From Macrostomum lignano (Eukaryota), in NCBI GenBank assembly GCA_002269645.1, contig NIVC01000150.1:248001-312000 (forward strand): DNA of 64,000 nucleotides, read 5' to 3'. The notes under the pieces are model-generated. The model was not told the origin of the DNA. It searched no databases and saw nothing but the letters and a program-made list of their open reading frames with translations. The position numbers and the translations under genes were made by a program. Shown here piece by piece: positions 16,821-23,390 of this stretch (positions are counted from its first letter, which is position 1; each line of letters begins with the position of its first letter).

Positions 16821-16960
16821 TCCATATGGCTATTGCGTAACTTTACTGTTTTAACAGAATTTGTATGTACGTACAAGCTGCTATGAAACTTGTCTATAAA
16901 TAAAATATATCATGCACAAATTGCAGTACACTGCAACAAACATCTTTCAAGCTCACCCAT

Positions 16961-17232
16961 GCCAGCGGGGTGCAGCACGAATGCATCCCGCAGACCAACT
17001 ACCGTGTTTGTGCGGGCCCCGCTGCACCAGCTGGAGAGCACTGATGAGGTAGTCGCACCAGGAGGGCCCAGCCTTCGAGATCTCCAAGTACGCACCAGGT
17101 GTGTCAACCTCATCAGTGGTCTCCAGCTGCTGCGGCGTGGACCGCCCAAACACGGTAGTTTTACCCATGCCTGACTTGCTCAACCATGCTCGGGATGGCC
17201 TGCGGGATGCACTCGTGCTGCACCCCGCTGGC
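16961..17232. ncRNA. Candidate long hairpin RNA (~270 nt imperfect inverted repeat)
   Basis: CCAGCGGGGTGCAGCACGAATGCATCCCGCAGACCA pairs with TGGCCTGCGGGATGCACTCGTGCTGCACCCCGCTGG (34/36). AACTACCGTGTTTG pairs with CAAACACGGTAGTT. CAGCTGGAGAGCACTGATGAGGT pairs with ACCTCATCAGTGGTCTCCAGCTG. The stem starts ~60 nt after a CTATAAATA box. Confidence 0.55.
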
Positions 17233-17733
17233 TGAATGAAATTGAGCCAAACCTGCAATGAAAATGACCGCTTCTGACCACTGTCAAAAACTTTTGATTT
17301 ATTGCCTTGCGGCAGCAGCAATTTTATCACCACACCCTAAGCAACAAAACCCCAACTCGACACGTTCCACCACGCAGCAACAAAAGTAATGTGGGGTTGA
17401 TTGACCCTGTTTTCGATTTTTAACTGTCAAAATATTTGATTGATGACCCTCTGATAACACAGATCCAGCCGTAGCAGACATTGTAAAATTTAAGAAGTTC
17501 CACAATCGGTACGTGTTTCCATTGTTTGTTTTGTACCCTTCTCGACACCTAGCAACATCTCCTCACAGTCGCTTTTGGATTTTTAATGCTGTCACAAATG
17601 TTGTGTAACTTTATTGTCAATTACCACTGCACTGAAATTGGTGTACAATCGTAATGCTGCTATGAAACTTGTCTATAAATATATTGTGCATAAATTGCGA
17701 TGCACTGCAACCAACATCTTTGTGCTAAACAAA

Positions 17734-18090
17734 ATGACAAACGGAATCTCCAGACTATGTTCTTGTCGCGGCGAGCTCGCAGAGCTCGCCAAAGCCCGTC
17801 CCACTCTTCGGCGGGCAATTATTCGAGGTGCAGGCAAGGAACTGATTCATTGTCTCTGTGAATTGAGTCACAACGTACTCCGGGGAAATATTGATCTTTC
17901 TCCGAAACAGTATCTGCGATTAAAGCGATACAGAAGATCGTTGCGTGAATTGGCAGACACAAAATTGTCTATAAATAGGAAGAAGAATATGCTTCTCTCG
18001 AACCCTCAAGTCGGTGGTTTTCTACCCATCCTTGCATCTGTTGCTGCACCGCTAATATCAAGCCTGTTTGGTGGACTACTCGGTCGCTAA
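17734..18090 (+). CDS. Conserved Polinton/adintovirus small virion protein with a C-terminal amphipathic peptide
   Basis: ELIHCLCELSHNVLRGNIDLS...LKRYRRSLRELA...QVGGFLPILASVAAPLISSLF matches a Polinton protein pattern I recognise. ATG at 17734 lies 60 nt after the TATA box. Confidence 0.8.
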   Translation: MTNGISRLCSCRGELAELAKARPTLRRAIIRGAGKELIHCLCELSHNVLRGNIDLSPKQYLRLKRYRRSLRELADTKLSINRKKNMLLSNPQVGGFLPILASVAAPLISSLFGGLLGR

Positions 18091-18091
18091 A

Positions 18092-18745
18092 ATGAATAAA
18101 TACGTTGTTGTGCCAGAAGAAGAATTTAATAGGCTGAGTCAAGGCGCACCCCGAGAAATTGCATCTAAAACAGAATATGAAAAACTCATTGAATACAACA
18201 CTCAACTCCAAAATAAACTAAGTCAGATCAAGCAAAAGAAGAGTAATCGTTTTCCTGAACGACAACAACGAGTTTGGGACTTGTTGACAGAAAGATACCC
18301 GAATTTGGAGTACAACAAGTCGTGGGAAATTGTATTCGATGGAAAAACCTGGCCAGGAAGCAATATTTTCGATCTACTGAAAGAGATTACATCGAATGAA
18401 AGGCGCGACCGCCAAAGCCCAAAATATAGTACCGCCTTTTGGACCCTGGCTGAAGAGGCAGATATTGCAAAAGCCCTACTAGGGCGACGCCAACAAGAAG
18501 AAGTCAGTGTGAAAAAAGAAGTTGGCACGGATCCGGATCGAGGCGATTTTTTAGTCGAGCAAGCAATTGGAACTAGTGATTTCCACAACGACTTCCACAA
18601 AGACCGAGCCAGTGGCCTGAATGAAGTTAAAAAATTTGAAGATCGTGGCAGCGATGCCTACAGGCATGCTTCATACCAACTTCGCGAACCAAAGAGGCGA
18701 CAGAAACCAGCAGTAAAATACGAGACGTTAAAAAACTATAAATAG
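18092..18745 (+). CDS. Conserved Polinton hypothetical protein (GSNI-DL motif)
   Basis: MNKYVVVPEEEF... and YNKSWEIVFDGKTWPGSNIFDLL resemble a recurrent Polinton ORF. Confidence 0.7.
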   Translation: MNKYVVVPEEEFNRLSQGAPREIASKTEYEKLIEYNTQLQNKLSQIKQKKSNRFPERQQRVWDLLTERYPNLEYNKSWEIVFDGKTWPGSNIFDLLKEITSNERRDRQSPKYSTAFWTLAEEADIAKALLGRRQQEEVSVKKEVGTDPDRGDFLVEQAIGTSDFHNDFHKDRASGLNEVKKFEDRGSDAYRHASYQLREPKRRQKPAVKYETLKNYK

Positions 18746-18878
18746 AAATCATTTTCATGATTTATAATCTGTTTTTGGATCATGGGTGCCGCAGCTGTAA
18801 CTTCAAAGCTTTGCTCAGACAAACCGTCTGTGGAGTTCAAGTGTAACTACTCATGCTGTGCATCGACTCTAGTTGCGA

Positions 18879-21148: not shown

Positions 21149-21192
21149 ATAAAGAAGTTTTCACGAATAAAAGACCGCAATTCATCAGCAAT

Positions 21193-21588
21193 ATGCCTTC
21201 AATCTTGATCGGAGGAGCTTTACCGGTATTTTCCGGTGCACAGCGCGGCAACGGACTGTTTGGCAGCATTGCCCGATTTGCCCTGCCAATTTTAAAGAGT
21301 TTTGGCAAAAATATTCTTCGCCACGGAACACGAGCCCTAGCTACAACAGTTAGCGACACACTCGATCAAGGCGGGAACTTGAAAGAAGCAGCATTGCGCA
21401 ACTCTGTCCGGGCAGCTAAAGATGCTTTCAAAGACACAGTCACACAACGAGGTAGCGGCGGTGGTCAAAGGCGTAGAAAGAAGACTAACAAAAAAACGAG
21501 AAAAAGACTCCAACATTCTGATATTTTTGACTCTATAAATAAAAAAACCGCGTCAATAATCGATCAGCCTATTAGAGCACCACTCTAA
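21193..21588 (+). CDS. Basic core-type virion protein with adenain-type cleavage motifs
   Basis: QRGNGLFGSIARFALPILK, QRGSGG and an R/K-rich tail RRRKKTNKKTRKR. Located between the penton and MCP genes. Confidence 0.75.
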   Translation: MPSILIGGALPVFSGAQRGNGLFGSIARFALPILKSFGKNILRHGTRALATTVSDTLDQGGNLKEAALRNSVRAAKDAFKDTVTQRGSGGGQRRRKKTNKKTRKRLQHSDIFDSINKKTASIIDQPIRAPL

Positions 21589-21606
21589 GCCGCTGTTGAA
21601 AGAAAA

Positions 21607-22890
21607 ATGACTGAGTGCCTGTGTACAAAGTAGGAATTCGAGCTATTTGCTCCTCGAGCACACCAAATTGCTGCAATTAGCGCCACCACTGAAGAAGTTC
21701 ACCCTGTTGCCAGTGTTGAAAATGCCAGCGTGGTCGAATTTAGGATTGTTGGTGGTGAGACGTTTATCGATCTTAACGACATTGACCTCGAGATTAAGGC
21801 CCGCGTTAGGCAATCTAATGGCACAAATCTTGCTGCTGATTCGAATGTTGCGCCGGTCAATTACGTCCTTGAAAGCATGTTTAAAAACGTCACGTTGACA
21901 ATCAACGGGACCCACGTAGAGTCGAGCAATAACGACCACGCTTTCAAGGCCTATATTCGCACGTGTTTGAATTACGGACACGATTCAAAAACCAACCAAC
22001 TGAGAATGATGGGCTACGCAAAGGACGCTGGAGGTCAAATGGCTGTGGTTGGAAATCCTGGTTTTGTAGCCCGCAAGGCGATGGCGGCAAACTCACGCAC
22101 CTTTCACCTTTATGGACCTCTTAGTTTAGACTTTTTTGTTACCAACGACCGAATGCTGCTGCCATACACTGATATGGTAATTACGCTAACTATGCACAAT
22201 TCCGGCTTCGTTTTGGAAAACCACGCGGACGGGGTTGAGGCGCGGCTGGTACTCGAGAGTGCCAAACTACATGTGCGCCGCGTCAAGGCAAACCCTCAAC
22301 TGGCATTGGAGATTGAAGAACAACTAGGCAAACAGAATGCAATCTATCCGATTGAGCGACTTGTTGTGCACAATACTTCAGTGGCTGGCGGTGTTCGGGA
22401 CATGTCAATCAACAATATATTTCCTGAACAAAAGCCTAAACTAGTGGTTGTTGGCATGGTAAACAGCGGCGCATACAACGGTGTGGCTACACATAACCCG
22501 TTTAATTTTGAGCCATTTGGAGCCGACAGTGTGGCTCTGTATAAGGACGGAGTCAGTCTGTGTGGACAACCGTTTACTCCTCGATTCGGTGTTCATAACT
22601 ATGCTCGCGAGTATGCTATGCTACTAAAAAGCCTAGGATAGATGAATCGGGACCTGGATATTGACGTATCATATTCCGACTATGGAGCTGGCTACTGCTT
22701 CTTCGCCTGGAATCTCATGCCCGACATGGAGCTGGGTGGGCATAGCATGCCTCGCGAGCGAGGGAATCTGACGCTACAAATAAAGTTTTCTGCTGCCTTG
22801 GCCACAGGAATCAACGTGTTGGTGTTTGGCTACTTTGACAATACTGTGCAGATCACTCGCGGTCGTCAGGTTATTCTAGACTACGTGTAG
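21607..22890 (+). pseudogene. Double jelly-roll major capsid protein (hexon-like) with two in-frame TAG stops (21631-21633, 22639-22641)
   Basis: One frame from ATG 21607: ECLCTK*EFELF..., VEFRI, APVNYVLESMFKNVTL, GAYNGVATHNPFNFEPF, GYCFFAWNL, GNLTLQIKFSAAL. These match Polinton MCP motifs. Confidence 0.9.
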
Positions 22891-22940
22891 AAACAAACAA
22901 CTTTTTTTTATTCCCGAATAACGGCCGTATTCATGCCGAT

Positions 22941-23390
22941 ATGAATAGTTTAGATATATTAGAACGTCTAATACTGCCTGTCCCTGTTCGAGTAACACCA
23001 GTTGACAGGATTCCGCAGCCTGTTTATCCTGCTGCATACGTGATTAACTTTGACACTGGCAATCTACCAGGCACTCACTGGGCTTTGATTTGTCTTCATG
23101 CCGATGAGAGCGTGACATTTTTTGACCCCTTGTGTAGTGATCCTGTGCCGGATTTATTAAAGTTGTGGATCGCAAAGTATGTCCCTGTGGAGGTGGCCAT
23201 GAACCGGCATCCTGTACAGCATCCGCTAAGTGTGACCTGCGGGGCTCATGTAATATTTGTGGCTGAAAAACACTTTCTGGAGTGTCTGCCGATTGAAAAA
23301 ATATTGCGCGACTGTTATAGCAAAAATCTTTATGAGAACGACTTGATGGTGCAGAATCACTGTCTACAAATAAAGCAGCATCATCCATAA
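22941..23390 (+). CDS. Adenain-like (Ulp1-fold) cysteine maturation protease
   Basis: Catalytic H (GTHW), D (FFDP), oxyanion Q (VQH) and C (TCGAH) are all present. Confidence 0.92.
   Translation: MNSLDILERLILPVPVRVTPVDRIPQPVYPAAYVINFDTGNLPGTHWALICLHADESVTFFDPLCSDPVPDLLKLWIAKYVPVEVAMNRHPVQHPLSVTCGAHVIFVAEKHFLECLPIEKILRDCYSKNLYENDLMVQNHCLQIKQHHP

Follow-up and report, generated by a model that had tools for sequence, protein, structure and literature searches.

A polymerase-less Polinton relative in Macrostomum lignano

We analyzed a 64,000-nt stretch of contig NIVC01000150.1 from Macrostomum lignano (assembly GCA_002269645.1), hereafter the window, which carries a Polinton/Maverick-type element without a polymerase (13798..24817, + strand, 11,020 bp). 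A first-pass annotation had proposed that the word TATAAATA forms a late promoter class in this element, possibly read by a protein of the element's own that resembles the TATA-binding protein (TBP), and the analysis described here followed up that proposal. The element lies in a tyrosine-recombinase/DUF3504 gene. It is bounded by terminal inverted repeat arms of 603 nt each (13796..14398 and 24214..24816) and by the target-site duplication ATCTCT (13792..13797, + strand, with the right copy at 24818-24823), and an empty site was found in run X1, where 13791 is joined to 24818 with six letters in common. A 6-bp target-site duplication is a feature of Polintons/Mavericks, and the element combines it with long terminal inverted repeats and an rve integrase. 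The genome holds two sister families of the element, A (93-98% identical to the window) and B. Two pPolB queries, one of which carries Pfam DNA_pol_B_2, had no tblastn match in any of 11 copies from these families. Judged by this absence of pPolB, the element is a polymerase-less relative of Polintons/Mavericks and not a full autonomous member.

All genes of the element considered here lie on the + strand. g4 (start 17734), g5 (start 18092) and a Cys-rich open reading frame (ORF) of 88 aa that starts with MG (18782-19048) are followed by an rve-type integrase with a chromodomain-like end (18879..19958), a putative minor capsid gene (19996..21148), a basic ORF of 131 aa (start 21193), a putative major capsid gene (21607..22890), a putative cysteine protease (22941..23390) and a P-loop ATPase, likely the packaging ATPase, with AATAAA at its stop (23393..24043). 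The 88-aa ORF overlaps the integrase start in another frame and is conserved in both families; it has no match in Pfam. In the window copy the integrase frame is broken near 19300, the minor capsid gene has a stop near 20059 and the major capsid gene has in-frame stops near 21631 and 22639. The genes at the integrase, ATPase, protease and capsid positions share 25-40% identity with those of polymerase-carrying Polintons of the same genome. The capsid labels come from homology and gene order, not folds: the two genes are 27-35% identical to the matching genes of pPolB-carrying elements, and their proteins have no sequence match in Pfam or PDB. For the integrase, weak Pfam matches to rve (0.023) and Chromo (0.005), both below cut-off, stand beside tblastn matches to integrase-position genes of pPolB-carrying elements, down to E 1e-39. 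The ATPase is recognized by its P-loop, and both it and the protease by homology to genes of other clades, with sub-threshold Pfam matches only. PDB sequence searches with the TBP-like ORF, g2, capsid and protease returned nothing meaningful.

The 5' part of family B (L039 = C1711, L041 = C59) also holds a 117-aa ORF and an ORF with HPFSDGNGRTAR, which we take to be a Fic motif. In family A both ORFs are lost or reduced to a remnant.

TATAAATA is enriched on the sense strand of the element

All seven copies of TATAAATA previously placed on the + strand were recovered (16895, 17674, 17970, 18737, 19937, 21144 and 21534), together with the TACAAATA variant at 23365 and three occurrences of the 13-mer TTGTCTATAAATA (16890, 17669 and 17965). 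An eighth TATAAATA at 14577 and a second TACAAATA at 22775 had been missed. The rough estimate that well below one copy is expected by chance proved sound: the element body (9,815 nt) contains eight copies on the plus strand and none on the minus strand, against 0.14 expected and a maximum of 2 in 1,000 shuffles. Over the whole window and both strands there are 17 copies, against a shuffle mean of 1.84 and a largest value of 6 (100 shuffles), and the enrichment is ~57-fold in the element versus ~6-fold in the host flanks. All eight plus-strand occurrences of TATAAA in the body continue as TA, and neither TATAAAAG nor TATAAAAA occurs in the window copy. The word matches the RNA polymerase II TATA consensus TATAWAWR and stands on the sense strand upstream of genes. 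The boxes at 16895 and 17674 are not independent, as an identical 26-mer (repeat D14) is common to both.

Five of the six conserved starts that follow a box lie within the 45-75 nt noted in the first-pass annotation, and the sixth lies at 122 nt. The box at 17674..17681 is 60 nt before the start of g4, whereas that at 17970..17977 is the distant one, within the g4 coding sequence, 122 nt before g5 and free of AATAAA. The box at 18737..18744 lies over the g5 stop, 45 nt before the 88-aa ORF, and that at 19937..19944 falls within the end of the integrase, with the putative minor capsid gene starting 59 nt behind it. Both of the next two boxes overlap AATAAA: 21144..21151, where the putative minor capsid gene has its stop, 49 nt before the 131-aa ORF, and 21534..21541, 73 nt before the putative major capsid start. 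The spacing does not extend to the box at 16895..16902, a recent duplicate of the 17674 box, which has no gene behind it and stands 66 nt before the base of a hairpin. The box at 14577..14584 is upstream of the 'early' genes; its equivalent in family B overlaps the stop of the Fic-motif ORF, 39-40 nt before the 117-aa ORF, of which only a remnant follows the box in the window copy. A rule of one box per structural gene describes most genes of the capsid module, but it fails for the 16895 box (hairpin), the 14577 box ('early' genes) and the protease, which has no conserved box. The TACAAATA at 22775 was tried as the protease box and rejected, as the site reads TACAGATA in two of four family-B copies and its anchor was not found in the other two. 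The TACAAATA at 23365..23372, before the ATPase, is ambiguous: it is kept in 9 of 12 copies, but it is protein-constrained and overlaps AATAAA.

The boxes are conserved between sister families

Conservation in sister elements, a check proposed with the original annotation, was assessed within this genome. An anchored look-up in 12 copies (eight of family A and four of family B, some of which may be haplotypes of one insertion) found the exact TATAAATA at 82 of 84 homologous sites; one of the two remaining sites has a variant and the other is missing. One A copy and one B copy are 68.3% identical over 8,401 alignment columns, and in the comparison of the families 54 of 56 box columns are identical versus 239 of 469 in the flanks. 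The automatic alignment placed six of the seven boxes in register, and the seventh is present in B within the same gap, shifted by the aligner. No related loci beyond this genome were found in metagenome contigs, viral contigs or phages.

The boxes are also written into the upstream coding sequence, as had been suspected. Five start there; when the codons were resampled 3,000 times without changing the proteins, the mean was 0.61 and no resampling had more than 3. Because the genes are packed head to tail, boxes fall in the last codons, the stop or the poly(A) signal of the preceding gene. Four of the eight overlap AATAAA and may serve as promoter and poly(A) signal both; the other four contain no AATAAA. 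Their position, strand and conservation make it highly probable that the TATAAATA boxes act as promoters.

Other Polinton clades of the genome have words of their own

Other Polinton clades of the same genome, on C889, C84, C1680, C297, C593, C641, C671, C6, C1113, C114 and C494, each have a TBP-like gene and offer natural controls. In a cross-table of 11 elements, with clade words chosen after a k-mer scan, TATAAATA occurs 7-8 times in three clade-1 copies and 0-1 times in the other eight elements. The word TATAAG[CT][AT] (TATAAGCA-type) occurs 5-7 times in four clade-2 copies and 0-2 times elsewhere, and [CT]TTAAGAA (YTTAAGAA) occurs 7-8 times in two clade-3 copies and 0-2 times elsewhere. 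Nearly all of these words are on the sense strand, mostly one per gene and often in the upstream coding end, and those of clades 2 and 3 depart from TATAWAWR. Of 12 other elements selected through their capsid match, 10 have a TBP-like ORF, in one case with a Pfam TBP match of 6.9e-21; this count leaves out C1113, C100, C860 and C84b, which were fetched via their TBP match. The two elements with no TBP-like match, C6 and C105, were searched in stretches perhaps short of the whole element. The first gene of all eight other elements checked has a TATAWAW box 46-112 nt upstream, which is TATATAAG in three and TATAAATA in one. The clade words and the first-gene boxes are the best evidence from sequence for two putative promoter classes and for element-specific reading. 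The TBP and capsid trees both split clades 1 and 2 from clades 3 and 4, an agreement given little weight because four clades allow only three such splits.

In clade 2 (L071/L073/L074 = C889, C1680, C297) an ORF that we take to be P-loop kinase-like lies right behind the TBP-like domain, and in C297 the two share a reading frame. A presumably dUTPase-like ORF is present in C1680 and C641.

The TBP-like protein has a predicted saddle fold

The TBP-like domain (16347..16820, + strand) has no ATG at the homologous start. Structure prediction upheld its earlier assignment: two models were obtained (pLDDT 82.5 and 81.6), and both point to a TBP saddle in comparisons with Foldseek and VIA. The underlying profile search gave five proteins, one of which is an archaeal-type TBP. 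For the model from the full alignment, which includes this protein, the top Foldseek matches were all TBP (E 9e-9). The model built without the archaeal row reached a VIA Z of 14.5 (rmsd 3.4, 157 residues aligned), and the next unrelated chain had a Z of 6.9. Against Pfam TBP (PF00352) the relatives scored 14.1-24.6 bits, and one of five, P0003, passed at 24.6 versus the cut-off of 22.9 bits. The window protein from ATG 16392 had no Pfam match, and an Atlas look-up of the ORF gave no usable match. The C-terminal stirrup retains its acidic ExExF (WECEVF versus host YEPELF), with both E invariant in alignments A2 and A3; the TBP stirrup holds contacts to TFIIB, according to a passage of PMC10005294.

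The cores of host TBP and of a TRF2-like protein are each encoded in a single open frame, and the assembly has three copies of each. More than 100 further TBP-domain matches, a lower bound, look element-borne.

The putative early region and a predicted splice from g2 to the TBP-like domain

The genes up to and including the TBP-like ORF had been described as following TATATAAG. The word is indeed present at 14845 and 15532, and the copy at 15532..15539, before g2 (15601..16176), is conserved in families A and B; it is likely a host-TBP ('early') promoter. The description is weakened in that both copies belong to one duplication and TATAAATA at 14577 lies upstream too. The copy at 14845..14852, 125 nt before g1, is a family-A duplicate of the 15532 promoter region, and the two lie in a 130-nt duplication that is 95% identical (D2).

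The TBP-like domain is probably expressed by splicing of g2 to a TBP exon, in a transcript from the TATATAAG promoter at 15532. The predicted intron (AAG/GTAGG ... TTGCAG/, 16141..16346, + strand) has phase 0 at both ends. Its donor-like AAG/GTAGG is found in g2 of 11 of 11 clade-1 copies and is the sole such site in the body, and the acceptor-like TTGCAG/ stands at the start of the TBP domain in all 11. g2 is conserved in relatives only up to this donor-like site; in five outside relatives conservation stops at the donor-site codon. The clade-2 copies (6 of 6) have a pyrimidine tract and YAG at the start of the TBP domain. The spacer between g2 and the TBP-like domain differs in length and frame between families, and its length modulo 3, which is 2 in the window but 1 in three other copies, led us to reject a conserved frameshift that would join g2 to the TBP frame. 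The joint 16140/16347 was not among the listed joints of four contig runs, which are guessed to be RNA. Contigs of all four runs cross the predicted intron or the donor region unspliced; they may be DNA or unspliced RNA and are mute on splicing. No longer g2-TBP fused protein was present among 3,489 candidates, which is weak evidence, and g2 itself had no match in Pfam, PDB or Atlas. Clade-2 elements contain a donor-like GTGAG/GTAAG 270-407 nt upstream of the acceptor.

Candidate readers of the boxes

We propose that the TBP-fold protein would appear first, translated from a spliced transcript of the TATATAAG promoter, and would then read TATAAATA ahead of most capsid-module genes. It would recruit host TFIIB and RNA polymerase II, so that each box would be a core promoter giving one transcript per gene. 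We lean slightly toward reading by the element's TBP-like protein, as opposed to host TBP alone, and regard early-then-late timing as an even proposition. The two promoter classes of the first-pass annotation are supported by a separate TATATAAG promoter conserved before g2, but TATAAATA can serve the first-gene position too. The coupling of TATAAATA to the TBP-like protein gains from other clades, where a clade-specific word accompanies a TBP-like gene of that clade; we can only infer it, because TATAAATA agrees with the cellular consensus and is an ordinary TATA box for the host, too, so host TBP could read it.

Several observations weigh against this proposal. In clade 4, which has a TBP gene, no single word clearly stands out (TATAAGAA, 3 each). 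The clade words were chosen post hoc, and three clades are few independent points. The host flanks (52,970 nt) hold five TATAAATA on the plus strand and four on the minus strand, against 0.81 expected per strand. The protease gene (22941) is without a conserved box in front, and an initiator-like pattern was looked for near +30 of the boxes, with none evident. In clade 3 the clade word stands 74-80 nt ahead of the TBP-like gene itself, and in the window the 14577 box, too, comes before the TBP-like gene. A strict early-to-late cascade is therefore not the general rule, and feedback fits the clade-3 layout better. In the protein, about two of four intercalating Phe are kept and the Asn of the second repeat is replaced, by an alignment of uncertain register and on our assumption of what these residues do. 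Part of the DNA-binding face is lost by this comparison. TRF2 with a lost Phe does not bind TATA, and TATAAATA, a TATAWAWR box, works with human and plant TBP, as reported in part of PMC10005294. The clade-2 element C593 has TATAAATA 86 nt before its first gene. Given this box, the fit to TATAWAWR and the enriched host flanks, host TBP is sufficient in principle for clade 1.

The boxes could accordingly be real promoters read by host TBP/TFIID, with the TBP-like protein acting as a decoy (for TFIIB, NC2 or Mot1) or as a damper of host transcription. We consider this unlikely, though worth serious attention: TATAAATA is the cellular consensus and can precede a first gene, as in C593, and the protein retains the stirrup motif for TFIIB despite its altered DNA-binding face. 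It does not explain, however, why every plus-strand TATAAA in the body is a TATAAATA, with TATAAAAG and TATAAAAA absent from the window copy, or why other clades fix non-consensus words beside their own TBP-like gene, each uniform within its clade. Reading by another factor of the element (g1, g2 alone, g4, g5 or the 88-aa ORF) or by the factor of a helper Polinton appears improbable. Several ORFs have no assigned function and the lack of pPolB makes a helper likely needed, but the sampled polymerase-carrying clades use other words, and an 8-nt TATA at a TATA-like distance occurs where a TBP fold is at hand. Only a little less credible is the idea that the word is mainly a 3'-end signal, combining stop codon and AATAAA, of the upstream gene. 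AATAAA overlaps half of the window boxes, four of seven in the family-B copy C2722 and both TACAAATA, and the last gene ends in TAAATAAA without a TATA; on the other hand, half of the boxes are without AATAAA, one of them lying 120 nt within g4, it is TATAAATA and not AATAAA that stays invariant, and the clade-2 and clade-3 words stand at matching positions without AATAAA. Chance, through AT-rich stop-codon context and common ancestry, is hardly credible in view of the shuffling, codon-resampling and A-versus-B conservation tests, even though two pairs of words are duplications and host DNA is enriched for the word.

A hairpin derived from host UAP56 follows the duplicated box

The box at 16895 came with an insertion. 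About 780 nt with the box duplicate and a hairpin are absent from most family-A copies; the insertion consists of a second copy of the g4 box and then a hairpin of 272 nt (16961..17232, + strand), whose 5' arm is sense and whose 3' arm is antisense to the coding sequence of host UAP56/DDX39B. The hairpin is far more stable than its shuffled versions (z -14.7, 0 of 100 shuffles) and has no match in Rfam. It is present in 4 of 30 loci, which represent only two insertion sites because three of the four have one flank in common; one of the loci besides the window is L091:4415-5404. Over 135 alignment columns the arms are 80-81% identical to six host loci, whose ORF is DDX39B/UAP56 (E 1.8e-149); the hairpin derives from a captured fragment of this host gene.

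In the sub-lineage that bears the hairpin, the duplicated g4 box would drive this non-coding UAP56 hairpin, and the antisense arm could then yield small RNAs against host UAP56 mRNA, a suggestion that we make tentatively from sequence similarity. Antisense 21-mers within one mismatch number 21-22 of 118 in four of five host loci and 4 of 118 in the fifth. Against silencing, and so against this extension of the proposal, stand the modest identity of the arms, a longest exact match to the host of 18 nt, the presence at two sites only and the lack of compensatory change. The two arms agree at 7 of 15 differences between hairpin and host. Between the two hairpin sites there are seven differences, among which inspection by eye found no paired change, and the copy at the other site has a less stable fold. 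The hairpin may alternatively be a neutral capture.

The rest of the inserted cassette (17280..17601, + strand) shows 82% similarity to non-coding DNA that adjoins a polymerase-like remnant on C5086/C1001. This segment has a counterpart at L095:4809-5139, and copies on C3385/C3715 keep it without the extra box or the hairpin.

Relation to known systems

The element resembles Polintons, Mavericks and adintoviruses, as described in parts of PMC8502044 and 10.1101/697771, in its terminal inverted repeats, integrase, ATPase, protease and capsid-type module, and it differs from them in having no pPolB. TBP-like genes are labelled in figure legends of PMC8502044, in a section on non-animal-associated viruses; the word 'promoter' occurs 0 times in the main text of that paper and of 10.1101/697771, and in the portions available TBP is not tied to a promoter word. 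In the literature searched, which left most subscription papers outside, we found no promoter class, activator or TATA-word class for animal Polintons and no Polinton hairpin against a host gene.

With cellular and archaeal TBP (PF00352) and TATAWAWR, the system shares the predicted saddle fold, the stirrup ExExF and an 8-nt TATA word shortly upstream of genes. The element protein differs in its 16-20% identity, its length of 157 aa, shortened loops and helix, an altered DNA-binding face and its likely nature as a spliced C-terminal domain. Virophages and polinton-like viruses (Sputnik, Mavirus and PgVV) likewise have a motif upstream of many same-strand genes and monocistronic reading; their motif is that of the giant helper virus, according to an excerpt of 10.1101/2022.07.28.501842, whereas here the candidate reader is element-encoded and the polymerase would be the host's. 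The poxvirus factors VITF-3 and VETF are similarly virus-encoded, divergent TBP folds that serve one promoter class, but they use a viral RNA polymerase and a viral TFIIB-like partner, as set out in a section of PMC12917281, and neither is seen in the element. The VIA Z of the element's TBP-like model to the vaccinia chain is only 5.5.

The hairpin recalls TART-A and nxf2 of Drosophila, where a mobile element with a fragment of a host RNA-export gene could silence the host gene. TART-A is a retrotransposon that acts through PIWI-interacting RNAs (piRNAs) and for which there is expression evidence, by the account in part of PMC7785250; here the element is DNA-virus-like, the fold-back hairpin stands behind the element's own box and the target would be UAP56. 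In Drosophila, dual-strand clusters require UAP56 to produce piRNAs, as stated in a passage of PMC4826399.

These comparisons bear on how integrated Polintons switch on their virion genes. Cellular TBP varies very little, so a TBP with lineage-dependent DNA specificity would be unusual, and the three natural protein-word pairs of this genome (TATAAATA, TATAAGCA and CTTAAGAA, with TATATAAG as the putative early word) allow a simple cross-specificity test. The UAP56 hairpin, if true, would be a second case after TART-A/nxf2 of mobile-element small RNAs directed at the host RNA-export machinery. In its broadest and still speculative form, which we think rather unlikely as a whole, the proposal would have clade-private TBPs serve host RNA polymerase II in the manner of phage sigma factors, each with a TATA-variant word to read, which would let several clades keep their late programmes insulated within one nucleus. 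The polymerase-less clade would retain a code of its own but borrow replication, and in one sub-lineage the captured UAP56 hairpin would be tied to this programme and act against host RNA export or piRNA defence as the virion genes are switched on.

Other features of the window

The gene split by the element has tyrosine-recombinase, DUF3504 and QRICH1 domains and lies on the - strand in two parts (13254-13793 and 25042-25599); we take it to be Crypton-like. Just outside the element, at 25864-26121, is a small feature like a miniature inverted-repeat transposable element, with 47-nt inverted arms around a 28-32-nt tandem array. Farther along, positions 47000-58100 show extreme GC skew (up to +0.99 and -0.84) and long low-complexity ORFs, which are likely simple repeats.

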